Positions 10,347-29,000 of a stretch of 52,668 bases of DNA are shown piece by piece. Numbering within the stretch: position 1 is the first letter of the stretch; every line of letters starts with the position of its first letter. Source of the stretch: Saprospiraceae bacterium (lineage in GTDB: Bacteria; Bacteroidota; Bacteroidia; Chitinophagales; Saprospiraceae); the NCBI GenBank assembly GCA_043756725.1, contig JAYUQN010001025.1, forward strand, positions 1-52,668. Reading direction: 5' to 3'. Below the pieces are notes generated by a model. It saw only the letters and a list, made by a program, of their open reading frames with translations. It was not told where the DNA came from and did not search any database. The position numbers and the translations under genes are program-made.

Positions 10347-10660
10347 TCGGTACACTTGTGGGGCTTGTTCGGTACATTTATGGGGTTTATTCGGTACATT
10401 ATTAGGGTGCTCCCAGTACATTTATGGGGTTGATTCGGTACATTTATGGGGCTTTTTAAGTTTTTTCCCATTATCTCGGTACACTTATGGGGTTTTTGCC
10501 TCTAATTGTGCTATTCCTAACCTCTCGGGAAGGATTATTTTTCTCAACTCGGTACATTTATGGGGTTTTGAGAGAGATGCTTAAAGTCTTATTCGGTACA
10601 TGGTTGGGGTTGGAATAGAAGTATTATTTTCGGTACATCGATATTTTATTTGTACCGAAT
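10347..10660 (+). repeat. Iteron array (putative plasmid-type origin of replication)
   Basis: The unit TCGGTACA(T/C)TT(A/G)TGGGG starts at 10347, 10369, 10391, 10413 and 10435, an exact 22-bp phasing. Further copies start at 10476, 10549 and 10593. A half-site palindrome, TTCGGTACA...TGTACCGAA, lies at 10629..10659. The array sits directly upstream of the rep gene and next to an AT-rich kilobase. Confidence 0.85.
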
Positions 10661-10726
10661 AAAAAGAGTTTCCTATATTTGTCCTGTAATGCCTGTAATG
10701 ATAATTAATACCAAATCCACGATACT

Positions 10727-11995
10727 ATGCAATCACCAAATTTACTGCCTGACAAATATGCCCGCATCGACAACCAGTTTGTTTTCAACGCTCGGTATCG
10801 TTTGCCTGCCCGCGAACAAAAGATAATTCTTTATCTTATTTCTAAGATTAATCCCATTAAGGAAAACGAATTTCATAAACAGCGGTTATCAATCGGTGAA
10901 ATGAAGCAATTGCTCACCAGAGAAGGAGCCAAATATGGCAGTTTTTACAGCGAATTGACAACGATAGCCGAGACGATGACAAATTGTAAAATAACATTTC
11001 CAACGCAATTTGAATTCAATGGCACACGCTTAAAAGGGGCTATCAACTGGTTTCAGCACTGTATTCCGATAGAAGATGAAAAAGGCGAATTGTATCTCGA
11101 ATTTGTTTTTTCCGAAATTTTGAAACCTTTTATCATTGATTTAAAAGAATACGTGAAAATTGGGGTCGCAGAAGTGTTTCCAATGCGCAGTGGTTATGCC
11201 ATCAGAATGTTTCAATTGCTGAAAGCAGAATATGATCGATTGAAAGAATATAAAAAAGTGGTGCATTATGATTTATCTTTAGAGAAACTCAAAGAGCTTT
11301 TGAGTATAGAAGGCAAATACAATTATCCCGATTTTAAGAATTTTCGTGTGCGTGTTCTTGACCCTATTCGAGATGATATTAATGAATTTAGTAATAACAT
11401 TCAGATTGATTATGATTATTTGAAAACGGGTAAAAAAGTGACGGGTATCAAGTTTATCATTTCAGCAAAAAATGATAAACCTTTGAAAATTACGAGCCTC
11501 TCTCCACAAGAGTCCTTACGGACAGTATCAGACACCCCAAAACCAGAAAAAAGCCCGAAAACCAAAAAAGTTGCGACTGAAAAAAAGCTTGACTTATCGC
11601 TCTTGACCCGTGCTCAACTGCAAGCCGCAAAATTGCTTTCTGATTTTGGTGTTTTTGAAGGGATTGCTGTAAAACAAATATTACCGACCATTGGCGGTTC
11701 AGAAGTTGTCGGTTTTGAGGATATATTTATACAAAAAGCTTTAACCTATTTTCAAAATAATACTAAAAAGCGGGATACAGATGATTTGAGCGCGCCCACT
11801 TTTGTGGTGTGGTGGCATGAAAAAAAGATTTTTGATACCCACTCTGATTCGGGTGCATGGACTATTTTGATGGAGCAAGTATCGGATGAAAAAAAGAAAA
11901 TGCAACAGAATGACCCCATAGCTTATGACAATCGCCTCATGGCTCGAACAATGACAAACACTGCTTTTGAACAATGGTATCGTCAAAATAAATAG
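10727..11995 (+). CDS. Rep_3-type plasmid replication initiator
   Basis: The 422-aa protein has ARYRLPAREQKIILYLISKI, FPMRSGYAIRMFQLLKAEYD and FKNFRVRVLDPIRDDINEFSN...TGKKVTGIKFII. These match the characteristic Rep_3 winged-helix pattern. Iterons lie upstream. Confidence 0.88.
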   Translation: MQSPNLLPDKYARIDNQFVFNARYRLPAREQKIILYLISKINPIKENEFHKQRLSIGEMKQLLTREGAKYGSFYSELTTIAETMTNCKITFPTQFEFNGTRLKGAINWFQHCIPIEDEKGELYLEFVFSEILKPFIIDLKEYVKIGVAEVFPMRSGYAIRMFQLLKAEYDRLKEYKKVVHYDLSLEKLKELLSIEGKYNYPDFKNFRVRVLDPIRDDINEFSNNIQIDYDYLKTGKKVTGIKFIISAKNDKPLKITSLSPQESLRTVSDTPKPEKSPKTKKVATEKKLDLSLLTRAQLQAAKLLSDFGVFEGIAVKQILPTIGGSEVVGFEDIFIQKALTYFQNNTKKRDTDDLSAPTFVVWWHEKKIFDTHSDSGAWTILMEQVSDEKKKMQQNDPIAYDNRLMARTMTNTAFEQWYRQNK

Positions 11996-12171
11996 GGTAG
12001 GGAAAGATTTGTTTATAATGGTTTGATAAGTTCACAGATTATTAAAAAAGAAAATAGCATTTTATATAAAAATCTTTTTACTTTGTGTTTGTTTTTTGTG
12101 GCTGGCGTAAAGTATAATAAATTATTTATATAGATGGCTTATAAAATTCCCACAGCAATTTGAGTTATGAA

Positions 12172-13068
12172 ATGACGATTAAGGATGCCAATACCCTGTC
12201 CATTGTGAAGGTGCTTGAAAAGTTAGCCTTCCAGCCAATTGAAGTGCCGCAACATGGAAACGATGTGTGGTATATCTCTCCCTTTCGCCCGAAGGAGCGA
12301 GCTGCTAATTTTCATGTAGATATGCGTCGTAATATTTGGTATGATTTCGTCATTAATACAGGTGGTTCGACACTTGATTTTATTAAGCATTTTAAGGATT
12401 GTGATGAATCAACGGCTTTGGATATTATCGGCGGTTTTTTTAAGCAATCAAGTTTATCTTCGGCTAATAATTATAATAAACCCAATAACTCGGCTATCAA
12501 TACGCTTTTCGTTTTAAACGATGTCAAACCTTTGACGAACCCTTCGCTTTTATCCTACCTTTTGGAAGAAAAACGCATCAATACAAATGTGGCTAAAAAA
12601 TACCTTGTGGAAGTAGCTTATACGCATACGGAAGATAAAAAAAGTTATTATGCCTCAGCTATGGAAAATGAATCGGGCGGTTATGAGGTGCGCAATAAGT
12701 ATTTTGAAGGGTTTTTAGGTAAAAAAGACATCACTATACTGAGGGGGGGTACAACCCATGAAAATACGCTTTCAGTCTTTATGAATTTGATGGATTTTTT
12801 ATCAGCGGTTGAATATTATGGAACTATAATGACAGCCAATGATGTGATAATTGTACACCATACCGATTTTTTACAGAAAGCCATGAATGTGATTGAAAAC
12901 AATAAATATCAACGCGTTTTCACCTATTTTGAAAACGGCGAAGTAGGAGAGGAGCGTATAAAAGCGTTTCAAAAAGGGTTTGGTAAAATACACGAACCCT
13001 GTCATGGTTTTTATTATCCTCATAATGATTTTAATGCTTATTGGCAGCATTTTAGGGGTAAAAAGTAG
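12172..13068 (+). CDS. Toprim/primase-like protein of the kind found on Bacteroidota mobile replicons
   Basis: ATG at 12172 is preferred over the tracked TTG at 12160. The N-terminus is zinc-finger-like without the Cys ligands (WYISPFRPKERAANFHVDMRRNIWYDF). The Toprim-like core is LSVFMNLMDFLSA ... TYFENGEVGEE. The acidic Toprim residues look partly substituted. Confidence 0.6.
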   Translation: MTIKDANTLSIVKVLEKLAFQPIEVPQHGNDVWYISPFRPKERAANFHVDMRRNIWYDFVINTGGSTLDFIKHFKDCDESTALDIIGGFFKQSSLSSANNYNKPNNSAINTLFVLNDVKPLTNPSLLSYLLEEKRINTNVAKKYLVEVAYTHTEDKKSYYASAMENESGGYEVRNKYFEGFLGKKDITILRGGTTHENTLSVFMNLMDFLSAVEYYGTIMTANDVIIVHHTDFLQKAMNVIENNKYQRVFTYFENGEVGEERIKAFQKGFGKIHEPCHGFYYPHNDFNAYWQHFRGKK

Positions 13069-13143
13069 TTGCGAATTTATTCGCAACGGAAAATTAATGC
13101 CTTCCTCAATAGTTTAACATAGGTTTTTTAATAATTAAGTAAC

Positions 13144-13179
13144 CACCTGTAGCGGCAAATTTAGTCGCCGCTACAGGTG
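13144..13179. repeat. Perfect 13-bp-arm hairpin (CACCTGTAGCGGC / GCCGCTACAGGTG)
   Basis: The loop is AAATTTAGTC. It shares the CTGTAGCGGC arm core with the 18458..18529 palindrome. A separate hairpin, GTTGCGAA-TTTA-TTCGCAAC, lies at 13068..13087 and overlaps the primase stop codon. Confidence 0.7.
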
Positions 13180-13327
13180 ATTAAACAAGATTTAGGGTAA
13201 GGCTTTTTTGATTGAACGCAGCGACAATATCATCCATCTTTGCGAGATAAAATTTTTTACAGATGAATTGATTATGGATAAAAAAATGGTAGATAATCTG
13301 AAAAATAAAAGAACTATTTTCAATTAC

Positions 13328-13478
13328 CAATAGTCCGTGCATTTTTTTGAAATAGTATTAAATTGGGCTTTTTGGGGAAACTACGTAAAATATTATTTCG
13401 ATTTTTTAGATATAACTTTGACAAAGTTGTGCTAAAAACAAAATTATATTTTTCGCTTAAAAAATGCACGGACTATTG
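13328..13478 (-). repeat. MITE-like element, copy A (151 bp, 20-bp terminal inverted repeats)
   Basis: The terminal inverted repeats are CAATAGTCCGTGCATTTTTT and AAAAAATGCACGGACTATTG. The reverse complement aligns with 37384..37550 through AAGCG(A/G)AAAATA..AGCACAACTTTG(T/A)CAAAGTT..ATCGAAA. Confidence 0.6.
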
Positions 13479-13627
13479 AAAACTAATTATCACGAAACAA
13501 AAAAAATATGTTTTGTACCCTTTAAATGGTATTTGGTAAGCATTTTGTATTATGAGAAAGATTGAAGAACAATAGTGCTTACTTTTTAAGCATTTTACAA
13601 ATAAATCAGCAAAAACGATACGCTTCT

Positions 13628-16600
13628 ATGAAAGGTAAACTATTTTATGTCCTTTCGTTTTTGGCTATTTGCACTTTATTAAGTGCAAGCCTAACGCCAA
13701 AAAAATTCTATGAAATTTTAGATACAGTCAAGTCCGTTCAACCTGTGTCAAAAACAAGTGAAAGGGAAATTTCTGAAAAAATAAGTGCTTATACTGTCCA
13801 AAGGGACTCCTATGGAGAGGGGGGGGCTGATGCCGCTTTTTTACCGCCCATAGCACCCAGTGAAACCTGCACAGAGGCTATGCAAATCTGTTCGGGCGTC
13901 ACAGTGCCTGCTCGAACTTCCAGCGGTACGGCAGAAGCGGGTCCTTATTATGGCTGCTTGAGCACTGTGCCTAACCCCACTTGGGTGTATGTGAAAATTG
14001 CAACAAGCGGAACGCTTTCATTTAATGTAACGCTTGCGCCTTCTGCGGATGTCGATTTTGCGGCTTGGGGTCCTTTTGTTGCACCCACTTGCGGGGCGGC
14101 TTTGAGTTCGTTAAAGATGAAAGCCTGTGATTACAACACAACAAATGGCGGCACGGCGAATCTCGGAAATGTTTTAGCAGGGGAATATTATATGATTTTA
14201 TTAACCAACTATTCTAATACAGCAGGCAATATTTCGGCTACAATTAATGGGGGATCCACAGCAACCTTAGAATGTGCAACGCCCGGTGGCTATGGAGGCA
14301 ATTTGAAACTCTGGTTTAAAGCCAACGCAGGAACCAATACGACGACCAATGGTGGCGCTATTTCTCAATGGACGGATCAAGGGGGGCAAGGTAAAAACGT
14401 GACGCAAGCCACGGCTGGAAACAGACCTTTGTTTGTCACAAATGGCATTAATTTTAACCCTGCTATTGATTACGATGGCTCGAATGACTATTTGCTCAAC
14501 ACAACAACGGGCATAACGGGCGGCGATAAAACGTATTTTGCCGTAACGATTGCCAATACTTTACCGCTTACGACGGTAGGTATTATCGGTGCGGGTACAA
14601 CCTTAGATGAAACTGATTTTGGCTATGAAAATGGGAAGCTCAATATGTATGAAAATTTGCTTGGTACGGCTTCTGGCACAACAGCTATTTCAACAGCAAT
14701 ACCCATACTTTCTACAGGTATAGAATCAAGCAATGCTTTGTCATTTTTCAACAATGGTGCGGCGAATGGTTCGGGTTCTTATAGTTACAGTAATTCAACT
14801 ATTCGTTTTACGGTAGGTTGTCATAGCTTGGGATCTGCTTTATTGCCTGTTTATAAAAACTATTGGGATGGCTATATTTCAGAAGTTATTATGTATGATG
14901 GGGCGCTCACTGTTACGAATCGGGAAAGAGTAGAATCTTACTTAGGTATAAAATATGGTATTGAAGTGGGGCATAATTATCTTTCAAGCGATGGAACGGT
15001 TATTTGGGATAAAACGGTTAATGCCGCTTACCACAATAATGTCGCGGGCATAGGGCGTGATGATTTGGGTGGCTTAAACCAACGACAATCGAAGTCTGTT
15101 AATGCGTCTGCGCTTGTAACGATTGGTAATAATAATACCATTGTGGCTACCAATCAAGCCAATCCTAATAATTTTAGTGCGAATAAGTCCTATCTGATTA
15201 TGGGCGATAACAATGGTGCTGCTACGTGGCAGAACACTGAAACGGCTATTTTACGCAAACGCTTAACCCGTGAATGGAAAATAGGTGAATTAGGGACGGT
15301 GGGTTCTGTGAAAATACAAATACCAGACAATTCAAGCGTTTTAGCCTCAAAATTGCCTGCTGAAACGATGACGGTATATCTTTGGACGGATGCTGATGGT
15401 GATTTTTCAAGCGGTGCTATTGAAACGGCTATGACTTTGAGTGGTACGAATTGGGAAGCGAATATGGATTTTACAAATGGTCAATATTTTACTTTTGCAA
15501 CCGTCATGCCTCCAAGCCCGGGCTGCGTGGAAGGCGCAACGCTTTGGTTGAAAGCCAATAACGGGGCATCGCCTGTGGGAGGAGGAGGAGGTGCTTTAAC
15601 AAGTTGGACAGATAAAACAGCGGCTAATACTTTTACTATCAGTGGAACAGCTCCTACGGTTGTTGCTAATGGTTTCAATTTTAACCCGATTGTGCGCTTT
15701 GGCGGAGCGGGTAAATTGGTTGGCAATGTGGCTGTTGATATGAATGAGGGATATGCCGTAGTCAGTTATAATGGGGCGAGTAGCCTTGAAAGAGGAACGG
15801 TTGTAAGCCCTACCACAAATACGACATCAGATGGGAGTTCCCGTTATATGTTTCGTTCAGCTTCGGGGGGCATTTTTTATACAGGCATTATGTCTGCTAC
15901 CACTCTTCCAGCCACTTATTTAACTATGCCTGTGCCTAATAGTGGTGAAATCGCTTTATACAGTGCCAATTCAGCTAATATTTATAGAAAAAATGGGGTT
16001 GCAACGGGTTCTGGTTCTTCAGCAAATGGGATGAATGGCATACCCCAAGTGGGAGACCGTTCTCTTAATGATAGTAAATTGAATGGTGATTTGGCAGAGG
16101 TTATTTTATATGGCGCAACTATTTCAGCAACTGAAAGAGATAAAATTGAAACCTATCTGGCAGTGAAATATGGTCTTACTTTAGGACACAATTACGTCAG
16201 TGCTTCGGGCACAACTGTTTTCGCAGCAAATGGCGCAAGCTCAACGGATTTTGATGCCAATGTATTTGGTATTGGGCGTGAAGACTGTCAAGAATTGCAT
16301 CAAAAACAAGCGAAATCGGCGAATATAAATGGTATAGTCACGCTCGGTTTAGGCACAATTGCCGCTACCAATATTGCCAATACCAATACTTTAATGGAAG
16401 ATACCTATTTAATCATCGGCGATAATAATATGGCTGCAGGAGCTTCCGCTTTACCAACTGGCATGGCAAGTGCTTGTATACCGCCTGTGGGTATGGACGG
16501 GATTTTTGACCGAATTTGGAAAGCCCAAGAGACGGGTACAGTAGGCAGCACCCTTGTAAGTGTGCCAACGGCGAGCTTAACGGGTTTGGGATCGGCTAAT

Positions 16601-18457
16601 CCTGTGTATTTAGTGGTAGCAGATGATGTCGCTTTGACAATCAATGTGAAATATTTAATTATGACTGCCAATGGTGCCAATCAACAGGTGGCATTCGATT
16701 TTAATGGCACTCAATACTTCACTTTTGCGGGTAGTTTGGCAACTGAAACGTATTGCGCAGGCAGCCATTATGTGCGATGGGCAACACAAGGATGGGCAGC
16801 AGGTGCACTCACTAAAACGGTGAATTTGAACAATGGCTTAGTCATGACAACAACTGTGGCGGACTCGCAAAACATTTTACGAGCAGGCTATCCACGTTTG
16901 TATCAAGGTTTACCTATGGCTTATATCAATTCAAACAGTGCGTCAAAAGACATTACTTGGACGTCTCAATTCAATCAAACCATAGCCAGTTGCAATTTTA
17001 GCGTCTATGATATTGATAAAATACAGACTTTATTTGAACATGTAGACATCAAGGGTTATAAGGGTGCAACGGTCGTGAATCCTGTTTTGACCAAATCGTT
17101 GAGCAGTTATGTGTCCATTAGTGGCACGGTTGGCTCAGGTCAAATTAATAATACGACCACTTATAGCCCTTCTGCAAAATTGAATGTGGCTTTTAATGCG
17201 CCAATTGACAAAGTGGTTATTACATATAAAAACAATAAAAACACTTTGTATCCTCGAGGTGCAGCCATGCTTTTAAGCGATTTTATCATTTATTGTCCTG
17301 AGCCTGTTGTGACACCTGATAAAATTGCTTTGTCTAAAATAGCACCTATTGGCAATGTGAATCATGGCGATACAATTACCTATACTTTCAAATTTAACAA
17401 TGCGGATTGTGATGATAAAACCGTCAATTTTACAGACGTTTTGCCCGCAGGTTTTGTATGGAAAGCTAATACTTTAATAACGCCTTTGAACGGCACGGTT
17501 AATAGTTATGGAGGTACCAATACGGTGAGCATAACAGGCATAACCGTACCGCCTGGCATGAGTAGTTTTACTTTAGATGCTTATGCGGGTGCGGCAATCG
17601 GTACGCATAATAATCAAGCATCTTTTGTTGTGAATGGTACTACCTATTTATCAGACGATCCTTTTCAAACTGGGGCAAATAATGCAACGCCTATTATTTT
17701 AGTAGCCCCGCCGACAACGCCTCTTTTGACAATGGTGAAAGCTGTTTCTAAAGATACAGTTGTGAAAACAGATATTTTGACTTTCACCTATACTTTCAAT
17801 AACACAAGTGGTTCTGCAATTATAACAGATTTTACGGATGAAATTCAGCCCGATACGGTGCGCTATAAAGCGGCTTCGCTTGTTTATGGCGCAGGTCAAA
17901 CAGGTACAGCTAATGCATACAGCAATGTAAGTTCTTTGTATATTGAAAATTTAAGTATCCCAACTGGGGTTTCAACCTTAACGGTTCAAGTGGAAATGAA
18001 TGGTGCGAGTTTGGGTACTTATCAAAATATAGCCACCGTTATACCGACAACCGCATCGGGTTTTAGAGCCATTGAAATAAACTCTAATGAAGTGGCTTGG
18101 GCAATTGCACAAGGAGCCGCTTTTGAGTACGCTTTTGATTGTTTGGGGTCTACTGTGCAAGGCAGTTTTGCGGCTAATGGCACGGCGGGACAGGCGGGGA
18201 CGATAAAAATTCCTATCAATACGATACATAATGGTACAACAAGTTTTACCATTACAGGTACAGGTTTTACAGGCAATTTAACGACAAATATTACAGCTAA
18301 TACTGCTTTTATTACCCTTCCTATTGTGTATGATGGTTCGGGTACTGAGGGGTCTCGTATTTTAACGATAAGCTCGCCTGATGGCATGGGGAATTGCTCG
18401 GTGCAAGTGTTGATTAGTGTGGCTTGTAAAGCGGAAGGCGGCCGTATTGGGCAGTAA
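13628..18457 (+). CDS. Giant secreted repeat protein (about 1610 aa): LamG-like modules, DUF11-type repeats, one FxFxC module
   Basis: ATG at 13628 gives the signal peptide MKGKLFYVLSFLAICTLLSASL, so the tracked TTG at 13562 is probably too far upstream. Two LamG-like modules end in (V/I)E(S/T)YL(G/A)(I/V)KYG(I/L)..GHNY...GIGR(D/E)D...(N/H)Q(R/K)Q(S/A)KS. The DUF11-like repeats include KIAPIGNVNHGDTITYTFKFNN and MVKAVSKDTVVKTDILTFTYTFNN. The C-terminal tail is CKAEGGRIGQ. Confidence 0.85.
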   Translation: MKGKLFYVLSFLAICTLLSASLTPKKFYEILDTVKSVQPVSKTSEREISEKISAYTVQRDSYGEGGADAAFLPPIAPSETCTEAMQICSGVTVPARTSSGTAEAGPYYGCLSTVPNPTWVYVKIATSGTLSFNVTLAPSADVDFAAWGPFVAPTCGAALSSLKMKACDYNTTNGGTANLGNVLAGEYYMILLTNYSNTAGNISATINGGSTATLECATPGGYGGNLKLWFKANAGTNTTTNGGAISQWTDQGGQGKNVTQATAGNRPLFVTNGINFNPAIDYDGSNDYLLNTTTGITGGDKTYFAVTIANTLPLTTVGIIGAGTTLDETDFGYENGKLNMYENLLGTASGTTAISTAIPILSTGIESSNALSFFNNGAANGSGSYSYSNSTIRFTVGCHSLGSALLPVYKNYWDGYISEVIMYDGALTVTNRERVESYLGIKYGIEVGHNYLSSDGTVIWDKTVNAAYHNNVAGIGRDDLGGLNQRQSKSVNASALVTIGNNNTIVATNQANPNNFSANKSYLIMGDNNGAATWQNTETAILRKRLTREWKIGELGTVGSVKIQIPDNSSVLASKLPAETMTVYLWTDADGDFSSGAIETAMTLSGTNWEANMDFTNGQYFTFATVMPPSPGCVEGATLWLKANNGASPVGGGGGALTSWTDKTAANTFTISGTAPTVVANGFNFNPIVRFGGAGKLVGNVAVDMNEGYAVVSYNGASSLERGTVVSPTTNTTSDGSSRYMFRSASGGIFYTGIMSATTLPATYLTMPVPNSGEIALYSANSANIYRKNGVATGSGSSANGMNGIPQVGDRSLNDSKLNGDLAEVILYGATISATERDKIETYLAVKYGLTLGHNYVSASGTTVFAANGASSTDFDANVFGIGREDCQELHQKQAKSANINGIVTLGLGTIAATNIANTNTLMEDTYLIIGDNNMAAGASALPTGMASACIPPVGMDGIFDRIWKAQETGTVGSTLVSVPTASLTGLGSANPVYLVVADDVALTINVKYLIMTANGANQQVAFDFNGTQYFTFAGSLATETYCAGSHYVRWATQGWAAGALTKTVNLNNGLVMTTTVADSQNILRAGYPRLYQGLPMAYINSNSASKDITWTSQFNQTIASCNFSVYDIDKIQTLFEHVDIKGYKGATVVNPVLTKSLSSYVSISGTVGSGQINNTTTYSPSAKLNVAFNAPIDKVVITYKNNKNTLYPRGAAMLLSDFIIYCPEPVVTPDKIALSKIAPIGNVNHGDTITYTFKFNNADCDDKTVNFTDVLPAGFVWKANTLITPLNGTVNSYGGTNTVSITGITVPPGMSSFTLDAYAGAAIGTHNNQASFVVNGTTYLSDDPFQTGANNATPIILVAPPTTPLLTMVKAVSKDTVVKTDILTFTYTFNNTSGSAIITDFTDEIQPDTVRYKAASLVYGAGQTGTANAYSNVSSLYIENLSIPTGVSTLTVQVEMNGASLGTYQNIATVIPTTASGFRAIEINSNEVAWAIAQGAAFEYAFDCLGSTVQGSFAANGTAGQAGTIKIPINTIHNGTTSFTITGTGFTGNLTTNITANTAFITLPIVYDGSGTEGSRILTISSPDGMGNCSVQVLISVACKAEGGRIGQ

Positions 18458-18529
18458 CTGTAGCGGCGGATTTATCCGCAGACCTGTTTGACTTGTTGTG
18501 CAACTCGGCGGATAAATCCGCCGCTACAG
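18458..18529. repeat. 72-bp palindrome with 22-bp perfect arms, starting at the base after the stop codon
   Basis: The arms are CTGTAGCGGCGGATTTATCCGC and GCGGATAAATCCGCCGCTACAG. Each arm contains its own sub-palindrome, GCGGA-TTTA-TCCGC. Confidence 0.85.
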
Positions 18530-18564
18530 GGTTAAAAAATAGATAAACGCAATTTTTTTTTGAA

Positions 18565-21500
18565 ATGAAAAATATGAATCCGAAAACCAATTTCCTCACT
18601 TCTTGCTGGAGGGTGTTTCAAACGAACAATAACCTTCCGAAGGGTGTTTTGATGAAATTTAAGACCCCCTTGATGCTTTCAGCTTCATCACGACTGGGCG
18701 TGACAGTATTTATAGGCATTTTCACGCTTTTTTTCACCTTTTTTCACGCTGAAAAAACGTATGCCCAAGCCTGTGGCAGTTGTACAACGGCGAATTGTTC
18801 AGGCATAAAGCAATATGCCAATAAAACCGATGCCTTAGCAGGAGTAGGTAAAATATGGAAAAATTACAGCCCTGCCTTGACCAATGTAACAGGTGCTTTC
18901 ACCGTTTATGCAACCATTACGACAGATGCGAATGGGCAAGTATCGGTCATGCAAGAGATGCAAGTGCAAGGCAATTCAACGGGCTTATCGGCACAATCGT
19001 CTGCAGTAGCGGGGTCGAGGTCATACTCATTATATGCACTTTCGGATGTCAATTGTACATCGGCTATTTTAGCTGCCAATATCTTGAACGATGGTAGTTC
19101 TTCAACTTTCAATCCTGCATGGACGAATTTACAACCTAATACAAGTTATAAATTGGCTTTAAGAACCAATTTGGGGGTGATGGCTGCGGGGTATTCGTAT
19201 ATGGGTTTTAATATACGTTTTTATAATAATGTTAGACCTTTTTCAAGTTTTGCTTTCAATTGTGGTTCGGCTGCGGCTGTGGGTACATTCTATGCCAGTG
19301 GTGTAAGTGGGCAAAATGGTACTTTAACCGTACCTATTTCAAGTGCTACATCAGGTTACGCTAATTTTACGGTAACAGGTGGCGGTTTTTCGGGTTCGGC
19401 TTCAGTGAATATTGCAACGGGGCAGACATCTGTTTCAATACCTTTGACTTTTGATGGTTCTGGTGTGGCGAGAAGCCAGCCTTTAACGGTGACATCTACA
19501 CAAGGTACGGGTACGTGTACGCCTACCGTGCAGGTGAAACCTTTGATAGCTTCCTTTGCTTTCAACTGCGGTACAGCCGCTTCAACAGGAAGTTTTATAG
19601 CAAATAATACAGGTGGACAAACAGGCTCTTTGATGATACCCCTCAGTAATACAACGGCTGGGGAGGCGGTTTTTAATGTATCGGGTGGTGGCTTTTCGGG
19701 CAGTTTGACAACGACTTTGACGGCGGGGCAAGCCTCGGTTTCAATACCGATAACTTTTAGTGGCTCGGGTTCGGCGGGTAATCGTGCGGTGTCGGTGACT
19801 TCGGCACAGGGAACAGGTAGTTGTGGTTTGACTATCAATGTTATTTCACAAGCGGGTGGTTTTACTTTTAATTGTGGAACTGCGAGTATTGTGGGTCGTT
19901 TTGTAGCCAATGGTACGGGTAATCAAGGTGGTTTTATCACTGTTCCTATTACGGGAGCGATAGCGGGTACTTCTACTTTTAACGTTTCGGGAACAGGTTT
20001 TTCAGGCAGCTTGACGACTGTTTTAACGAATAATCAAACGCAAATTAATATTCCTATTACGTATGATGGTTCGGGGGCATCGGGAACGAGACCCCTCAGT
20101 ATAACAGCAACAACGGGCGGTGGTTCGTGTGTAATCAATGTAAACATAGTAAACCCTTCGCCAAATGGCGCAATAACTTTCAATTGCCCTGCAACGGCTT
20201 CTATCAATGGCAATTTTATAGCCAATGGTACGGCTAATCAGACAGGTCTTTTGAATATAAATTTTACAACGCAAACGGGGGGTGAAATTAGTTTATCCGT
20301 TTCGGGCAGTGGTTTTACAGGCAGTATAACGACAAATGTAAGTGCTGGTCAAACGGGCGTAAATATGCTTGTGACATACAACGGAACGGGTGTGGCGGGT
20401 AATCATGCGATAACGGTTACATCAAGCCAAGCGACAGGAACTTGTGCGATGGATATACCAGTTCAAGCTCTTTTTGCTTTCAGTTGTGGTGTTTTCAATA
20501 CATCTTCTAACTTTTTAGCGAATGGTCAAGCCCAAACGGGTACTTTGGTGATACCCCTCAGTAATGCAACGGCTGGGTCGGCTACTTTCACGCTTTCGGC
20601 TGGTGGTTTTACGGGCAGTTTTACTACGGTTTTGAGAGATAGTCAACGGTTTGTGGCTATTCCTGTTAGTTATGATGGGTCGGGGGCTACGGGCAGTCAT
20701 GCGGCTACGGTGACTTCTTCACAAGGTTCTGGAAGCTGTGCAATTGGGGTGAAAGTGAAAGACCCTGCGGCTGATGGCTGCGATTTTATAAAAGGACAAA
20801 ATATTATTTTAAACATACACAGCAATAATACAAATGCTTCATTTTCAACGCATTATATTTTAGTTGATGCCAATGGTATTATTCAATATCAAACGGCAGC
20901 TATGCCTTTTACCAATATTGAAAAGGGTGAATATGAGGCTTATGCTGTGAATTATATGGGTACTGCCCCGACTTTGACGGCTGGAACATCTTTAAATGCG
21001 ATAGGTGGAAATTGCGTTTCAATATCAAATGCTTTGCCGATAAAAGTGTGTGCAGGGTTTCAATTTAGTTGCGGGGGTGCTACTTATACAGGTACTTTTA
21101 TTGCGAATGGCGTTGTAGGTCAAACGGGTACTTTATACGTGACAATTTTAAATGCTTTGCCTATTCCAACAACCGTTTCAGTTAATAATAATGGTTTTAT
21201 TGGCTCAAAAACGGAAACTTTAACGGCAGGACAGAACACGATTGCGATACCTGTTACTTATGATGGTTCAGGCGGTGGTGGGACAGTTTTGCTAACTATT
21301 TCGGGGGTTAATGCTTATGGTACTTGTACAATGGGTGTGACAACTTTGCCACCACATCCAGCTTCTCCCTTTGCTTTTAATTGTAATTCGGCTGTTTTAA
21401 ATACTAATTTTATAGCGAATGGGGCAACACAATCGGGTAGTGTGCAGGTGAATATAGCGACAATTTCAGCGAATGCGACGACTAATTTTACATTCAATGC

Positions 21501-21705
21501 AACAAATTTTGGAGGTGGTTTGACCAATGCAGTTTTGAGTGCGGGACAAACGAGTATTGCTGTGCCGATAGAATTTAATGGGGCAAAGCCGCATGGTACT
21601 TTTGCCGTGACTTTGGCTTCGCCTCATGCTTCTAATAATTGTTTGATTAATGTACCTGTGGGGATTGATTGTACGGTGGTGTTGGGGGTTTTGACGCGGA
21701 ATTAA
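18565..21705 (+). CDS. Secreted protein built from about ten tandem 95-aa FxFxCG modules, plus one Cys-bounded YxAVNY module
   Basis: An alternative start at 18652 gives MKFKTPLM... with the hydrophobic core GVTVFIGIFTLFFTFF. The repeated pattern is F(A/T)FNCG..(A/S)..G.F.ANG..GQ.G.L..P......G...F.V.G.GF.GS.TT.L.AGQ....IP..(Y/F)DGSG..G......TS.QG.G(S/T)C. The tail is CTVVLGVLTRN. Confidence 0.85.
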   Translation: MKNMNPKTNFLTSCWRVFQTNNNLPKGVLMKFKTPLMLSASSRLGVTVFIGIFTLFFTFFHAEKTYAQACGSCTTANCSGIKQYANKTDALAGVGKIWKNYSPALTNVTGAFTVYATITTDANGQVSVMQEMQVQGNSTGLSAQSSAVAGSRSYSLYALSDVNCTSAILAANILNDGSSSTFNPAWTNLQPNTSYKLALRTNLGVMAAGYSYMGFNIRFYNNVRPFSSFAFNCGSAAAVGTFYASGVSGQNGTLTVPISSATSGYANFTVTGGGFSGSASVNIATGQTSVSIPLTFDGSGVARSQPLTVTSTQGTGTCTPTVQVKPLIASFAFNCGTAASTGSFIANNTGGQTGSLMIPLSNTTAGEAVFNVSGGGFSGSLTTTLTAGQASVSIPITFSGSGSAGNRAVSVTSAQGTGSCGLTINVISQAGGFTFNCGTASIVGRFVANGTGNQGGFITVPITGAIAGTSTFNVSGTGFSGSLTTVLTNNQTQINIPITYDGSGASGTRPLSITATTGGGSCVINVNIVNPSPNGAITFNCPATASINGNFIANGTANQTGLLNINFTTQTGGEISLSVSGSGFTGSITTNVSAGQTGVNMLVTYNGTGVAGNHAITVTSSQATGTCAMDIPVQALFAFSCGVFNTSSNFLANGQAQTGTLVIPLSNATAGSATFTLSAGGFTGSFTTVLRDSQRFVAIPVSYDGSGATGSHAATVTSSQGSGSCAIGVKVKDPAADGCDFIKGQNIILNIHSNNTNASFSTHYILVDANGIIQYQTAAMPFTNIEKGEYEAYAVNYMGTAPTLTAGTSLNAIGGNCVSISNALPIKVCAGFQFSCGGATYTGTFIANGVVGQTGTLYVTILNALPIPTTVSVNNNGFIGSKTETLTAGQNTIAIPVTYDGSGGGGTVLLTISGVNAYGTCTMGVTTLPPHPASPFAFNCNSAVLNTNFIANGATQSGSVQVNIATISANATTNFTFNATNFGGGLTNAVLSAGQTSIAVPIEFNGAKPHGTFAVTLASPHASNNCLINVPVGIDCTVVLGVLTRN

Positions 21706-21775
21706 TTTGAATTAGGATTTGTAGGATTTTGAAGGATATTAAGGATTTGGATACCCCCTCAGTATTTTGAACTAT

Positions 21776-22738
21776 TTACAATGAGTTCTTTGAATTTAAA
21801 TGTAAAAAGTATTTCAATACTTTATAAATTTCACTCAATTGATGATAAGTCGTAAACCCATTATTTGTATGAAATTCAAAGGTATTGGCTTGTTTTCGGG
21901 TCAATTGACAGAAGTGAAAACTGGAACTGCCCCAAAAATAACCCCCATAAAGGGTTTCAATTTTAGGGAATTGATGCAAGGTGGCTATTAATTTGGCTAA
22001 AATAACTTGGTCATCTCTGATTGAAGATGGACGTTTCCAATTGGCTTCAAGGATGAAAAGCGGTTGAGGGTCAGAATCGTAACCTGTGTAAATTATCCAA
22101 TCAAGTTGTGTTTTTATAAGATTGTTGTTAATGATTGTTTGAATAGGGTAGTTATGGGTTGTTTCATTAAGGTTGAAATTGTTTTCAGAAGATTGATTTA
22201 TTTGAAAAATTAGGGGGGCTATGAAATTGAAAATAGATTTTTCATCACGCATTTCAGAATATGCTCTTGAACTGCGTTGGTGTTCACTCATTTTTTTAAT
22301 AAAATCATTTTCAACATCAGTCAAAGGTATATTGGACTTAAAAAGGTTGTTGAAAGCAACATCTTCACTTCGGTAAAATTTTTTGACAGTTGCTAAAGAT
22401 TTAAGTTGTTCATCGGAAATAAAATTAGGATTGATGGATTCTATTTTTTCAACAGTACTGTCAGGAACTTCAACTATATCTGATGTGTCCATTTCAAATA
22501 TTTGAAAACCGTAGGCTGAATCACCGTCAATTGAAGATTCTTCGATAAGGCGTAACAAGGTGGCTGCCGTTAGTTCATTTGCTTTTTTACCAACGGGCAG
22601 ATAATCCAAGAGCTTATCATAAGTTTTTGGATTGTCTAAAATGTATTGAGTGACAGATAAAGTATCATTTGCTTTAAAATGCCATATTTCACTTACGCCT
22701 TCATCTAAGGAGACAGTGAAAACGAATAATTTTGCCAT
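21776..22738 (-). CDS. Hypothetical cytoplasmic protein (320 aa), the only reverse-strand gene inside the giant-gene array
   Basis: The ORF is clean and has no signal peptide. The C-terminal half has a D...E-x-K-like pattern (QLDWIIYTGYDSDPQPLFILEANWKRP), suggesting a restriction-endonuclease-like fold. No family could be recognised with confidence. Confidence 0.65.
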   Translation of the reverse strand: MAKLFVFTVSLDEGVSEIWHFKANDTLSVTQYILDNPKTYDKLLDYLPVGKKANELTAATLLRLIEESSIDGDSAYGFQIFEMDTSDIVEVPDSTVEKIESINPNFISDEQLKSLATVKKFYRSEDVAFNNLFKSNIPLTDVENDFIKKMSEHQRSSRAYSEMRDEKSIFNFIAPLIFQINQSSENNFNLNETTHNYPIQTIINNNLIKTQLDWIIYTGYDSDPQPLFILEANWKRPSSIRDDQVILAKLIATLHQFPKIETLYGGYFWGSSSFHFCQLTRKQANTFEFHTNNGFTTYHQLSEIYKVLKYFLHLNSKNSL

Positions 22739-22946
22739 AATCTTATCGGGTTTTAGGTTAAAATAAGTAAAGATTGATTGAGCAAATGTACGACTAAACC
22801 AATGAAAAAGACAAGATAAACCGTGTTTTGGTTATAAAATCCCAAAATGCGTTTTTTTTCACTTAAACATATTATATTTTTTAAATTTTAAAATATACCA
22901 TAAAATAATAGTAATGAAATTTTTAACACTTATTTTTATTTTTAAA

Positions 22947-23002
22947 CACATAGTCACATAGGACACATAGAGAGAAAACTATGTGTCCTATGTAACTATG
23001 TG
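22947..23002. promoter_or_regulatory. 56-bp palindrome with 24-nt arms, 57 bp upstream of the 2853-aa gene (candidate operator)
   Basis: The arms are CACATAGTCACATAGGACACATAG and CTATGTGTCCTATGTAACTATGTG (one mismatch) around the loop AGAGAAAA. Each arm contains three CACATAG-type direct repeats. The site lies in the divergent intergenic region. Confidence 0.5.
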
Positions 23003-23058
23003 TTTAATAAAAAAAACTAAGTATTAAACCAAAAATAAACTCAAAATCGCAGATAAAC

Positions 23059-26000
23059 ATGAAGCCACATTTTTACAATTTTTTTAAGGTTTTTCAAAAA
23101 AAGCCTAACAGTTTTTCAAAAGTCTTAGGATTTGCCCTTTTTGTGGCAATTTTTGGGCAATTGCCTAATGCCCATGCCCAAAGCCGTTTGGCTTTTATGC
23201 ACGGGGCTGATGACAACAGTGGCACAGGTTCGGGTGTCTCTATCTGGGTCAGTAATGGCAATGGCACTTTTAAACAGTGCAAAATCTCCGACACAGGTTT
23301 TGACCGTGACAATCTGCAAAGTGAAGTTTTTGGTGACGATGGGTCATCAACGACTTTTTATGCCGATGTGACGGGCGATGGCGTGGTGGACATTGTTCAT
23401 GCCTCCGAATATGGCGGCACAAATGCCATTCATGTTTATCGAGGCAACGGCAGAGGTGGTTTTTCTAAAACCGCTATTACCACTTCGGGTATGCAATCGG
23501 GTAGCGATGGCTATGTTTTTACGGGCAATAGTGGCGGTGAAAGCTCATTTTTAGCGGACGTGAATGGCGATGGCAATCTGGATTATGTGACTTCGGGCAA
23601 TGACCGAAATATCCACACCTATCTTGGAAATGGCAATGGCACTTTTGCCACAAGCCGTGTTTCAACCACTTTGACAGGCGCAAATGGCTATCAAACATCG
23701 GGCATTTCAACCGCAGAAGTTGCCTTTTTAACAGATGTAAATGGTGACGGCAAAGCGGATTTGGTGGCAACCAATGAAGGTGATGGGCGCAGTATTCGGG
23801 TCTGGTTGGCAACGACTTTGGGCAATTTTAATGCAACACCTGTTACCACAACAGGTTTTCAACAAACAGGCAGTTCTATTTTTACAGGTATTGGCGGTAA
23901 TGAAACATCGGCTATGATTGATGTGAATGGTGATGGTAAAATGGACTTTGTGCATACCAACGAGTTTGATGCGAACAATGATATTTTTACTTTTTTAGGC
24001 AATGGTGATGGCAGTTTTGCAACAACTTATGTGCGTTCAGTCGTGACAAATCCTGCGGGAACGTATTATCAAGCGATTGGTGATTGGGCGGGAGACTATG
24101 CCCAATGGATAGATGTAACGGGCGATAATAAAGTGGATTTTGTCACTTCTGCCGATTATTTAGGGGTCAATAGTGGCATTTATGTTTATACGGGTAATGG
24201 TGATGGTACTTTTAATGCTGCACCGATTGTCACTTTGGGTTGTGGCGGTTTTCAAACGGGTAGTGATTTTACTGAAACGACACGCATTGTACAAGTGTTT
24301 TCAACGGGAACTACTTTTGCCAATAACTGCCGTGTGAATCCAACAGGTACAACAACAGCCCCGGGTGGTGTCAATGATTTATTGCTTTGGTTAAAAGCCG
24401 ATGATTTAACCGCAAATGCAGAAGGAACAAGTTTGGCGACTTGGTCAGATAGTTTGTCATGGGGTTCGGTGGGGCAATATTACCCGACTTATAGACCGAC
24501 TTTCAATAAAACAACCGCTTCTAAACTTGTCAATTTTAATCCCTCTGTATCTTTCAATGGTGGGCAAGAATTGAAAACAGACCACCGTTTGTATTGCAAT
24601 AATTCGCAATTTCAATTGGTTTCAGTTGCGCTTGATGAGCGCAATAATCCTGTTGAGTTGCGTGCACCATTTGGTATTGGGGGCGATGGCAATTATCCTG
24701 CAATGGATATGCAAACTGATGGTATTAGCCCAAATGGTTTTAATCCGTGGATGTCTTACAGTTCGCCTGCGGAATGGGGAGCTGGAACAGGTGTTTTATA
24801 CAATGGCAATACAGGTGGCACTAATCGCCAACCACAGATTTTTTCTTTGGGTTCAACAAATGCCTCTACATCGGCAGTGGATAATATTGTGTCTTGGGTT
24901 GATGGTAAAAAAGATGCCACAACGCTTGATGCGAAACAACAAACTGAAATTGGCAACGGCATGTTCTTGGGTTCTTCGGGTGATGCTCAATGGCTTGGGC
25001 GTATTCCAGAAACCCTCATTTTCACCCGTCAATTGAATGATGGTGAAATGCAAAAAGTCAATTCTTATTTGGCTATAAAATATGGTATTACTTTGAGCCA
25101 AACGATGGCGCAAAATTACCTCGCTTCGGATAGTTCTGTGCTTTGGAATGCGACAACCAATGCCGCTTATAAAAGCGATATTGTGGTAATTGGGCGTGAT
25201 GATGCTTCGGGTTTAAATCAAAAACAATCAAAATCTGTTAATACGGGTATTCAACCAATTATCAGTTTGGGCGCAATTGCGGCAACAAATCAAGCGAATA
25301 CAGGCAGTTTTTTAACAAATAAAAACTTTGAAGCGATTGGACACAATGACTTGGCAGCTAATTACGCAACGGCTTATGCGCCAAGTAGTTTTACACCTGT
25401 TGCCCCTTTTTACCGCATGAACCGTATTTGGAAAGTACAGGAAACGGGAACAATTGGAACAGTAACAATCGGCATACCCCTCAGTAATGGGGCTGAAAGA
25501 TTGCTCGTTAGCACTGATGCGAGTTTCGCACCAGCCAGTACGCAAGAGATTTTATTAACCAACGATGGCAACGATAATTTGAAAGCTACGGTGGATTTGG
25601 CAGATGGGCAATTTTTTACTTTTGGGCGTATTGCCGTGGCACCAGGCTGTGTAGTGAGTGGACTGCAAATGTGGCTTAAAGCTGATGCAGGTGTAACGGG
25701 TTCAACGGCAGTAACAAAATGGGATGACCAATCCGTGAATGGACGGGCTTTGGTGCAAAATACCACGGGTAACGCACCTGCGGCTAATGCAACTATTAAC
25801 TTCAATCCAGCCTTTACTTTTGATGGTGTCAATGACCGTTTAGAATATAAAGGCACTCGTTTTATGAGTACAACGAGTTCAGGAACAATGTACGGGGCAG
25901 CGACAAATAAATACGATGGCGGTTATGAAAACTTGGGTGTATTGGGTATTGATAACCCGCACATGGGTACATTAGCCAATCAACAAATTATGTGGATGAA

Positions 26001-29000
26001 CTCTTCTGCGCCCGTGCGGATTGACCAACCGGGTACATTGACACCCGACCAACTTTATACGTGGGGCTACTTCTGGAATGGAGGAACACCGGATGTAGGG
26101 AGTGGTTTGCGCTTAGACGGCAAAGAGTTTTACGATGCCACAACAGAGGCTACTGCCGTTGGAAGTAGTGGTGTATCTGACGGTATGTTCACCGTAGGCA
26201 GTTATGAAGGACTTGAAAATTGGAATGGTAAAATTGCCGAAGTTATTTTATACGACCGCAATTTGACCAATGTTGAAAAAGATAAAATTGAAACTTATTT
26301 AGCGATAAGATATGGTAATTCTTTGAAACACAATTACTTATCGGGTGCGGGCGTAACTATTTATGATACAACGGGTTATGTGAATAATATTGCGGGTATT
26401 GGCAAAGAAGTGTGTCAAGGTTTAAATCAAAAACAATCAAAATCGGTTAATTCAGGTGTTCAACCGATTATTGGTTTGGCACGTATTGACTCCACAAATG
26501 CGGCTAATACGACTGAATTTGCCGCCAATAACAGCTTTATGGTTTGGGGTAGCAATACAGGTGCTACAAATTTTGGTACGGCTATCACCCCACCTGCGGG
26601 TATTTCATTGAATAACCGCTATGGTCGTATTTGGAAAATACAAGAAACAGGAACGGTGGGTATTGTAAAAGTCGCTTTCCCAATTCGTTCTGGCAATGGT
26701 GCAACGGTTTATTTAGTCCGTTCAACTGATGCGACTTTTGATGCAACGGACGAATTTACCCCCCTCAGTAATTTGACCGTTTCGGGTAAAGAATATTTAG
26801 CAGCGAATATTAATTTTAACAATGGTGATTATTTTACAGTTGCCACATTTTTAACAGCCCCCGGTTGTGTGGCTTCCAATTTAGGTCTTTGGTTAAAAGC
26901 GGATTTTTCGGGTACTTCTACGGGTGAAAATGCGGAGGATTGGCAAGACCACTCTACAAATGTGAATGATGTTGAGGTAAATGGTACGATGATTTTGCAA
27001 AAAGGGGACGCTAATCACAATTTTCAACCTTATTTTGGCAATTTTTCAGCGACAAATTTTTTCAAGGACATGAACAGTTCCTTAGCACCACAAGGCGCAT
27101 TTTTGGCTTCGGAGGTGACGATGATTGCAGCAGTGCGCCCAAATACTTCAACTGGAACGGGTCGTATCATGGGAATTGACAATGATGATAATTTTTCAGG
27201 TGAACCCGCTTTGAGTTTGAGTGCAGGTAATCCCAACTATTATCGCTATTGGAATACAACAAAAGATTTTGTTACCACCACTATTCCAACTACGGCTAAT
27301 CAAAGCACGGTTATTTCAGCCCGTACCAATGGTACTGAAATAAAATTGGGCAATAATGGGGCTTTTGAAAGCTCAACAGTTGTTGCAGGAAGCGGTATGT
27401 GGGGCGATATTATGACCGTTGGTTATGGTTCTTGGAGTGCGGCAGGGGCTTTTCCCGGTGAAATTCAAGAAGTAATTTGGTATAAATCGGCTTTAAGCAA
27501 TACAGAAGTTCAAAAAATTAATTCTTATTTGGGTATAAAATATGGTACTTCTTTGAACCACCCTTATCTTTCGGGTGCGGGTACAACCATTTATGATACA
27601 ACAGGATATGCGTATAATATTGCGGGTATCGGGCGTGAATTGTGTCAAGGTTTAAATCAAAAACAATCGAGAAGTCAAAATGTAGGCGTGCAGCCAATTA
27701 TCGCTTTGACCGCTTTGGCTGAAACAAATTTTGACAATTCGGCTACACTTGAAGAAGGGGCTTATATGATTTGGGGCAGCACAAGCGGCACAGGCACTTT
27801 TAGTAATACGATAAACGTACCCGCAAGTGTAACGGCAAATAACCGTTTTTCAAGAATTTGGAAAGTGCAAGAAACGGGAACAGTTGGAACGGTACAAGTG
27901 GCTTTGCCTTCCACTTTGGGCAATGGTGCAACGGTTTATTTAGTGCGTTCCACCGATGCAACATTCGATGCAAGTGATGAATACCTCCCCCTCTCCATAG
28001 GAGTCCCTTCGGACAGTATTTTGACCGTTGGAGGCAGTGATTATTTGGCTACAACGATTAATTTCAACAATGGCGATTATTTCACCATAGCAACTTACCT
28101 CACAGCACCCGGTTGTGTGGCGGCTAATTTGAATTTGTGGTTAAAAGCCGATAAAGGGCTTTCATCTACAACAGATGGTACTACATTGAACTACTGGGCA
28201 AATCAATCTATCAATGGCATTGACAGTGTTTACCAAGCAACAGCTACAGCAAGACCTACGGTTTTCAACACAACCAAAGGCAATTTGGTGAATTTTAACC
28301 CTTCCCTAAGTTTTGATGGAGGCGATGAATTGATAAGCTCAAACCGTCTTTTCAGCAATACTGCGCCTTTTACGACTATTGCAATGGCAATTGACCGCCG
28401 AACAAATACGGCTGAATTGCGTGCACCAATGGGCATGGGCTACGGAAATGGCAATTTTTTAGGTCTTGATTTTCAAACAGATGGCGTTAGTCCTTATGGT
28501 TTCAACCCTTATTCAGGTGTTGATGCCGAATGGGGGAATACAACGCCCAATTATAGATTGAACGGTTTGGGTCATGGCTCAACCAATCAAAATGGTAATA
28601 TTGTTGGTTTGACAACCAATAACGTTGCGGCTGGCTCGGATAATGTGATTGCTTATGTGAATGGTTCTAAGGACAATACGACTATTTCAGCCAATCAAAA
28701 CGCTTTATTTGGCAATGGTATTTATGTCGGTTCGAGTGGTGATGCTCAATGGCTTGGGTTAGTTCCCGAAGTGATTGTGTATGACCGCCAATTGACAGAT
28801 GCTGAAATGCAGCGTGTTTATTCTTATTTGGCTATAAAATATGGGACTACTTTGAAACAGCCTTATTTGAATGGTGCAGGGAATGTGGTGTATGATACAA
28901 CAGGTTATTCTAAGGATATTGCAGGTATTGCCTATGAAAAGTGTCAAGGTTTAAATCAAAAACAATCGCAAAGTGGCAATCAAGGGGTGCGTCCAACAAT

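Follow-up and report, generated by a model that had tools for sequence, protein, structure and literature searches.

A probable 21-nt small dispersed repeat that splits a hyper-abundant word in Saprospiraceae genomes

Introduction

Of all classes of repeated DNA, very small dispersed repeats are the least understood. To our knowledge, SDR5 (small dispersed repeat 5) in highly iterated palindrome 1 (HIP1) is the only described 21-nt module inserted precisely into a hyper-abundant genomic word, and it has been without a mechanism since 2008; the pair is credited to Elhai et al. (2008, Genome Res 18:1484). In the present work, a 21-nt module was analyzed in a 52.7-kb stretch of DNA from a Saprospiraceae bacterium (Bacteroidota; contig JAYUQN010001025.1). 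The whole stretch is called the window below, and its coordinates are those of the plus strand. The module splits the word [A/C]CCCCT^CAGTA[T], and with a probability of about 0.6 it is a very small non-coding, non-autonomous element of the small dispersed repeat type, placed in trans and in a site-specific manner.

SDR5 is a 21-nt sequence reported to be inserted precisely between nucleotides 3 and 4 of HIP1 in Nostocaceae, and directed cutting of HIP1 was suggested by Elhai to account for it (PMC4390886, PMC5861425, bioRxiv 10.64898/2026.06.24.733823). By the behaviour that those papers describe, the module is likewise a 21-nt dispersed repeat that has many copies per genome and occupies one bond in a hyper-abundant word. 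In addition, presence/absence between otherwise conserved homologues, as for SDR5, was found in Rep, PurD, and paralogous repeats. The differences are that the module belongs to Bacteroidota (Saprospiraceae) and not to Cyanobacteria, that most of its copies lie within protein-coding genes, and that its word, [A/C]CCCCTCAGTA[T], is non-palindromic, whereas HIP1 is the palindrome GCGATCGC. By this analogy, the module may best be placed closest to a small dispersed repeat of the SDR5 type, in another phylum. A preliminary description of the window had stated that a 21-nt element targeting a hyper-abundant motif would be unusual; such an element is supported by the present analysis, but SDR5, as reported in the papers cited, is a precedent for it.

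Results

Copies of the Module in the Window

Three copies of the module, designated A, B, and C, are present in the window (Table 1). Their sequences read as in the preliminary description, including the match of copy B at 20 of 21 positions and the degraded left half of the motif at the rep locus; the positions of copies A and B were also retained, while that of copy C was shifted by a few bases. A search of the window for the 21-mer with up to 3 mismatches gave 2 matches against 0.00 expected from shuffles, and the E-values of copies A-C in the covariance model range from 3.5e-14 to 1.1e-11.

The open reading frame (ORF) that carries copy A, 23059-31620, contains four internal repeats of ~1230 nt each. 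As had been proposed, a paralogous repeat has the uninterrupted motif: comparison of repeat 2 (26751-26790) with repeat 3 (27987-28020) shows a clean 21-nt gap between CCCCCT and CAGTA. All three copies are located in open frames, and their translations (LPLSIGVPSDSI, YTVQRDSYGEGG, and SLSPQESLRTVS) bear out the seven added codons. The claim that the insert always stands in frame inside coding sequence holds for the window; in the family as a whole, ~20% of copies lie outside long ORFs (n = 56). A fourth, divergent copy of 22 nt has the arms TTCC-GTA-GGAA and CACC-TAA-GGTG, which are changed yet still complementary.

Direction of Change in Rep and PurD

All orthologues of the plasmid initiator Rep (13/13, 64-93% identity) carry xPSV at the site, encoded by ACCCCCTCAGTA, without the 21 nt. 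In addition, blastn aligned the window with L055, a related plasmid contig, and the alignment is interrupted at CCCCCT^CAGTA by one clean gap of 21 nt. As for PurD, most of the 45 closest orthologues have N-T-E-G at the site, encoded by AATACTGAGGGG, the form that the word takes on the opposite strand. Of the 45, the protein of the metagenome-assembled genome (MAG) MAG-358 alone has the 21 nt (TVREDSF); its DNA reads CCCCCT[CTCCAAAGGAGTCCTCTCGGA]CAGTAT, compared with GACCCCCTCAGTAT in a relative. Distant PurD proteins are of the same length and have substitution variants of the word (NIEGG, NTKGV, NTEKV). At locus B, the one homologue found, the distant P0208, aligns with KNTEGG at this position; this agrees with an insertion but supports it weakly.

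Since the unsplit word is the common state in the orthologues of Rep and PurD and the 21 nt occur in one lineage each, a derived insertion is indicated and a deletion remnant is disfavoured. Judging from these alignments, the filled state is shown to be derived in both genes. The insertion into the motif proposed in the preliminary description is thereby supported, together with the expected presence/absence differences between orthologues.

Distribution of the Module among Genomes

One genome per species (185,579 species) was scanned with the pattern CTCCNNNNGAGTCCNNNNGGACAGTA, in which the arms and the right flank are fixed and the left flank is free. Matches were found at no fewer than 50 loci, and among the matches listed 48 of 50 belong to ~10 Saprospiraceae MAGs; MAG-358 alone contains at least 15 loci with at least 17 copies. 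Two outlier loci, in Pedobacter and in the 'Bacteroidetes BD_1' contig, were rejected as chance matches, with no CCCCCT flank and no host word in 8 kb. The association of the insert with the split word extends to the further copies: among the matches listed, each base of the left flank CCCCCT is present in 46-51 of 53 copies, though the search did not impose it, and the insertion site reads CCCCCT^CAGTA in 51 of the 53. The consensus is aCCCCCT / CTCC-RAA-GGAG-TCC-TYWC-GGA / CAGTAt, and the E-values of the covariance model across the family are 1e-11 to 1e-15.

The histogram of distances between CCCT and CAGTA (371 kb) has two peaks and no others, with 253 sites at 0 and 43 sites at 21. The orientation of copies relative to the word is always identical and there is no target duplication; inverted-orientation copies and tandem doubles were not found. 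Likewise, no left-end-only or right-end-only halves bounding a larger parent were detected in the 434 kb of related DNA, which is a limited sample. In the unselected flanks of the scan loci (318 kb), the model recovered four extra copies, corresponding to ~2% of word sites, and unsplit words exceed split ones by ~50:1. The window, with 3-4 copies per 31 words (~10%), is richer. A metagenome scan in which dyad 2 was left free, as an unbiased test of the arms, returned one unrelated hairpin only, and a scan of viral contigs for the module gave no matches.

Structure of the Insert

The insert is composed of two short dyads, CTCC/GGAG around a 3-nt spacer and TCC/GGA around a 4-nt spacer, the second of which becomes longer when the shared G and the initial C of CAGTA are included. 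In the unbiased set, formed by the window copies and the second copies in loci, the arms are nearly constant; the freely varying positions are position 1 of the first loop and positions 2 and 3 of the second. In the copy L010:4953-4989, the first spacer has 4 nt and the second 3 nt, the total staying at 21, and in L032:1348-1377 the arms are altered but complementary (TCC-GAA-GGA and ATCC-TTT-GGAT). Among the non-canonical 18-24-nt spacers between half-words, 3 of 16 show the two-dyad layout, compared with 0.03 expected. The two mini-hairpins suggested in the preliminary description are thus supported by the pattern of dyad conservation, but not by the folding energy considered in the Discussion.

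Coding Context

Forty-five of 56 copies are located in ORFs of at least 150 codons, 24 in the sense and 21 in the antisense orientation and in 5 of 6 frames. Among the products of the host genes are PurD, methylmalonyl-CoA mutase, GH95, a GH3/beta-lactamase fusion, a PolX-type polymerase, a Roc-COR GTPase, and TPR proteins. Split sites are distributed over the frames in the same way as the unsplit word. Since there is neither a common peptide nor a single transcript orientation, a protein- or RNA-level role of the insert is unlikely, and its occurrence in frame across the family follows from a length that is a multiple of three together with gene density. Since the module is present both in intergenic DNA and in unrelated genes, where both orientations and five of six frames are used, insertion is shown to act at the DNA level. 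The genic copies stay open, with a length that is a multiple of three; judging from the frames, the simplest reading is that they are translated, each adding seven residues to a tolerant loop.

Signs of Propagation within Lineages

The ratio of the A and G subtypes of the first spacer is 14:2 in MAG-358 (JAEUUP) and 2:6 in JANPGW (Fisher p = 0.005, matches listed). Copies A and B of the window, which stand in unrelated genes and on opposite strands, share the signature ATA / CTT[C/T], and this signature is absent from the other 50 copies. The lineage-specific spacer subtypes indicate that copies multiplied or were homogenised within lineages. Some copies are old, to judge from their orthology between MAGs: L011 and L018 are identical, and L037 and L040 show three differences, one in an arm and two in spacers.

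Host Word

The host word CCCCTCAGTA occurs in the window 28 times exactly and 31 times with up to one mismatch, compared with 1.4 expected. Examples of its fuller form, [A/C]CCCCTCAGTA[T], are the sites at 2018, 6641, 26761, 41355, 41718, and 51616. In every element-bearing genome, unsplit words number 0.3-1.1 per kb; 79% of them are in long ORFs, where they use the five stop-free frames (xTEG, xPSV, PLSx, ILRG, and PPQY), and the sixth frame, which contains TGA, is unused. The C-run of the word is 4 to 9 long, and its flanks are AT-rich at about -10 to -6 and +17 to +22 (window and loci L002-L057). In the plasmid backbone shared by the window and L055, the other five words are intact in both (5/5) at ~85% identity.

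In its over-representation, its use of both strands and all stop-free frames, and its conservation among relatives, the word behaves, as far as such sequence statistics can tell, like a DNA uptake sequence or a HIP-type word. Like the uptake signal sequence (USS) of Haemophilus, the DNA uptake sequence (DUS) of Neisseria, and HIP1, it is a word of 9-12 nt present about once per kb on both strands, found within genes in every stop-free frame, kept between diverged relatives, and surrounded by AT-rich flanks; an inverted pair followed by a T-run behind a gene is a further likeness. We know of no uptake sequence described for Bacteroidota, and a literature search found no description of the host word or of any Saprospiraceae uptake sequence.

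At 45405-45450, just past ORF 37819-45348, the word is accompanied by an imperfect inverted copy (ACCCCTCAGTAT...ATATTGAGGGGT) and then by TTCTTTTTTTT. This arrangement resembles the uptake-sequence pairs that serve as terminators in Neisseria and Haemophilus; a simple terminator scan of the window did not call it.

Other Inserts in the Same Word

In related genomes, the same word is split by other inserts of 21, 24, and 30 nt (Table 1). All are multiples of three and unrelated in sequence, and all except that in L060 contain a clear dyad, in most cases of the CCCGA-N-TCGGG type. A single site in PurD holds at least four different inserts, depending on the lineage. The word is either a frequently cut site by which sequence is captured, or the target of one activity common to several mini-families. 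Palindromic fill-in of the P-nucleotide type was rejected, as odd-length spacers and flank-unrelated arms do not fit it; a consistent 4-nt target duplication was also rejected, being seen, imperfectly, in one 24-nt insert only.

In addition, a 33-nt segment of the window, TGATGCTTTCAGCTTCATCACGACTGGGCGTGA (18671-18703), with two imperfect dyads, stands between CCCCCT and CAGTAT. It falls in the predicted signal-peptide region of ORF 18565-21705, whose N-terminus would still be plausible if the segment were removed. The segment may represent another insert class or a chance arrangement.

Table 1. Copies of the 21-nt module, other inserts in the host word, and plasmid-type features. Positions without a locus prefix are those of the window.
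Feature	Position	Strand	Details
Copy A	27993-28013	+	CTCCATAGGAGTCCCTTCGGA; CTCC-ATA-GGAG-TCC-CTTC-GGA; covariance model 54.5 bits, E 3.5e-14
Flanks of copy A	27987-27992; 28014-28019	+	Left half-word CCCCCT; right half CAGTAT
ORF with copy A	23059-31620		2853 aa, FG-GAP repeats; insert contributes SIGVPSD
Empty site for copy A	26759-26770	+	Unsplit word CCCCCCTCAGTA in repeat 2 of ORF 23059-31620
Copy B	13797-13817	-	Reverse complement; 20/21 identical to copy A; 52.3 bits
Flanks of copy B, plus strand	13791-13796; 13818-13826	+	ATACTG; AGGGGGGGG
Word halves of copy B	13818-13826; 13791-13796	-	CCCCCCCCT; CAGTAT
ORF with copy B	13562-18457		1631-aa secreted-type protein; copy ~56 codons past likely ATG 13628
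Copy C	11502-11522	+	CTCCACAAGAGTCCTTACGGA; CTCC-ACA-AGAG-TCC-TTAC-GGA; 4 mismatches to copy A; 46.1 bits
Flanks of copy C	11496-11501; 11523-11528		Degraded left half GCCTCT; right half CAGTAT
ORF with copy C (Rep3 plasmid initiator)	10727-11995		Copy in linker following WH2 domain
Divergent fourth copy	42549-42570	+	22 nt between CCCT and CAGTAT; 13.7 bits; inside ORF 37819-45348
Insert in PurD, L053			30 nt, CCCCCT[TCCCGATGGCATCGGGATTTCGTTCCTCAA]CAGTAT; T^C, bond fixed without ambiguity
Insert in gene adjoining PurD, L053			Second insert of the 30-nt TCCCGATGGCATCGGGATTTCGTTCCTCAA type; T^C
Both inserts in L053	L053:11064-11092; 9392-9420	-	
Insert in PurD, L052			24 nt; after CAGT
Inserts of 24-nt type, L029 and L052	L029:997-1020		CCCGAC....TCGGGATGT.CCAT; T^C
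Both inserts in L052	L052:11060-11083 (-); 16760-16783		
Insert in PurD, L061	L061:5313-5333	-	Different 21 nt, CACCGAGTGCTCGGGACAGGT; between CCCCT and CAGTAT
Insert in Rep, L060	L060:879-899		Another 21 nt; after CAGT
ParA	9000-9722	-	Pfam
Four iteron-like repeats	10372, 10416, 10438, 10552		GTACATTTATGG
CHC2 zinc finger protein	12160-13068		

Genetic Setting of the Window

The region 9000-13068 of the window is a plasmid-type backbone, and the same backbone is present in the metagenome contigs L055, L056, and L057. The ends of the window do not overlap with each other, and megablast of the region 9000-14000 against the plasmid database gave no match. The window further encodes two giant surface-type proteins, in ORF 23059-31620 and in ORF 37819-45348 (2509 aa), with FG-GAP, DUF11, cadherin, and DUF6923 domains; the adjoining ORFs bear sorting domains of the type IX secretion system (T9SS). 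According to the Pfam annotation, the products of the window ORFs are Rep3, ParA, a CHC2-zinc-finger/primase-like protein, Fic, peptidases, and T9SS-sorted surface proteins. No RNA gene was detected when the window was scanned for Rfam families and for tRNAs.

Discussion

The preferred reading, a small dispersed repeat placed in trans, would operate as follows. A site-specific activity would place the module at CCCCCT^CAGTA, with an ambiguity of one base, in a hyper-abundant word of 11-12 nt that would itself be maintained in a Saprospiraceae lineage. The putative enzyme would recognise the dyads, either as small single-stranded DNA hairpins or as symmetric duplex sites, and would nick the word at T^C. 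A seamless, target-specific, duplication-free junction would be the product of single-strand 'peel-and-paste' transposases of the HUH/Y1 type (IS200/IS605, RAYT), and would be equally expected if the word were cut in a directed manner and a filled site were then copied. Insertion would probably inactivate the word, which would explain why so few sites are occupied and why the left half has decayed at the Rep copy. A broader proposal, offered tentatively and as a possibility, is that of an undescribed Saprospiraceae system in which an enzyme acting in trans nicks a maintained 11-nt word and inserts, perhaps also excises, 21-nt dyad modules and their 24- and 30-nt relatives.

The module shares with IS200/IS605 insertion sequences, their miniature derivatives, the palindrome-associated transposable elements (PATEs), and repetitive extragenic palindromes with their associated transposases (REP/REPIN-RAYT) a specific target of 4-5 nt, the lack of a target duplication, and a seamless empty site. 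In IS200/IS605 and REP/RAYT, small DNA hairpins are recognised and mobilised in trans, and the same is proposed for the module; their substrates, however, are 5-20 times longer and have stable hairpins and guide sequences, whereas the dyads of the module are of 3-4 bp. The junction is as in PATEs, seamless after CCCCT and without target-site duplication, but membership in PATEs was rejected: there are no sub-terminal hairpins of ~8-10 bp, no length of ~100-400 nt, and, in 434 kb, no parent with the same ends. Miniature inverted-repeat transposable elements were rejected as well, as the module has neither terminal inverted repeats of 15-30 bp nor a target-site duplication. Rickettsia palindromic elements (RPEs) are ~100-150 bp long. 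As with the module, palindromic repeats are there tolerated in frame in genes, and RPEs are translated; unlike the module, which is of 21 nt and confined to Saprospiraceae, they belong to another lineage and are not known to be aimed at a hyper-abundant word. The module thus shares their in-frame property, but its size excludes it from RPEs. As for REPs, a terminal GTAG or CGTC tag beside a palindrome of 20-40 nt is taken as their definition (PMC3733652). The consensus of the module has no such tag and ~80% of its copies are inside long ORFs, whereas REPs are extragenic, so that REP/REPIN membership was rejected; no RAYT or Y1 HUH gene was found among the window ORFs annotated with Pfam.

Several observations weigh against the preferred reading, and a part of them fits a rival explanation, break repair or gene conversion, that needs no dedicated element. 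Here the word would be repeatedly nicked or cut by a nuclease of host or selfish origin, a methylation-repair system, or a recombinase, and repair would copy a filled word via the micro-homology of its halves or capture filler, the 21-nt form being the commonest donor. Mutually unrelated inserts of 21, 24, and 30 nt occupy the word at T^C or at CAGT^AT; a fragile or cut site that collects filler would account for them as well as would several element families with one shared enzyme. In one pair of non-orthologous copies, L020:4103-4139 (PurD of MAG-358) and window 13790-13836 (copy B), 10 extra bases of the left flank, GCATCAGCCC ahead of CCCCCT, are in common, with ~0.001 such pairs expected. 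In addition, on the left side of the Rep copy, 10 nt (window 11490-11501) have 4 differences from ATTACCCCCT in L055/L057, a divergence far above that of the surrounding gene; either the half-word decays fast once split, or the changes arrived with the insert. The shared flank and the diverged Rep flank suggest that more than 21 nt may sometimes be transferred, as in gene conversion. Furthermore, of the 29 window ORFs with at least 120 aa, 23 were annotated with Pfam (the remaining six are contained in, or overlap, longer ORFs), and no transposase, recombinase, reverse transcriptase, nuclease candidate, or HUH protein was found among them; directed cutting had also been suggested by Elhai for SDR5. 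Break repair is nevertheless regarded as unlikely, though it is the main rival: homology arms of 6-7 nt are far below what conversion of the RecA type requires, the flank-sharing pair is the only one among 1,431 pairs, and random filler would not yield one dominant 21-nt family with fixed orientation, conserved dyads, and compensating arms. The other points against the module as a mobile element are of a different kind. Filled and empty alleles were not seen within one population, only between lineages at 82-93% identity, so that current mobility is not shown. The invariance of the arms in the 50 scan loci was imposed by the search pattern, and the unbiased sample comprises ~7 copies. Folded as DNA, the copies reach -2.7 to -4.6 kcal/mol with z-scores of -0.3 to -1.5, no better than shuffles, and every known IS200/IS605 or REP substrate has far larger ends than these dyads. 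Given this weak folding energy, the case is not rested on hairpin stability; the dyads may be read by a protein, as hairpin or duplex, with no need for folding of their own.

The remaining explanations carry little weight. A functional site selected by the host and kept in place, such as an mRNA structural signal or a site bound by a dimeric protein, neither mobile nor selfish, would agree with the conserved dyad arms and variable spacers and with the retention of copies in orthologues of different MAGs (L011/L018 and L037/L040). It is improbable, as the copies are scattered in sense and antisense through unrelated housekeeping and surface-protein genes with no positional logic, their occupancy tracks the frame spectrum of the host word, and the predicted structures are no more stable than shuffles. 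As an alternative, the preliminary description had derived the short word by deletion from a longer ancestral form, here one of 33 nt. Both forms do have exactly the same two halves, and the deletion would be in frame; it is, however, very improbable in view of the ~50:1 excess of unsplit sites in unselected DNA and of the orthologues of Rep and PurD, all or most of which are unsplit, distant ones included, with the 21 nt in a single terminal lineage. Moreover, the only direct repeat around the segment is of 1 nt (C), which leaves recurrent exact deletion without an obvious mechanism, and the word in PurD changes by substitutions of equal length, and thus turns over by point changes. The sharp and conserved boundaries of the segment could suggest that it acts as a mini-intron, a translational bypass, or an intein-like peptide and is removed once the gene has been transcribed or translated. 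Yet antisense copies (21) are as frequent as sense copies (24), five frames and intergenic DNA are occupied, and no RNA or peptide signal could serve all of these; the length in multiples of three and the open frames of the genic copies are what a translated insert requires, and there is no Rfam match, so that such removal is scarcely credible. Finally, chance similarity or ordinary ancestral coding sequence, for which nothing speaks beyond the small size of the element, has practically no probability left: the absence of matches in shuffles, the E-values of the family, and more than 50 copies in unrelated genes of ~10 genomes refute chance.

The module would thus be a second, independent example of its class, in another phylum and in a non-palindromic word. 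Its sites in well-known housekeeping genes make the filled and empty states easy to score, and genes common to the element-bearing genomes but absent from word-only genomes would be candidates for the enzyme, which provides a comparative handle. The host word is apparently an undescribed USS- or HIP-like word in Bacteroidota. In addition, a DNA-level process has added seven arbitrary residues to proteins such as PurD and methylmalonyl-CoA mutase, and these proteins tolerate them, which is relevant to annotation and to the interpretation of indels in MAGs. If a nick-and-insert system is indeed present in Saprospiraceae, it would be a convergent counterpart of SDR5/HIP1 and the smallest class of mobile DNA, and it would imply that hyper-abundant words in genomes are in general connected with site-specific cutting or insertion.

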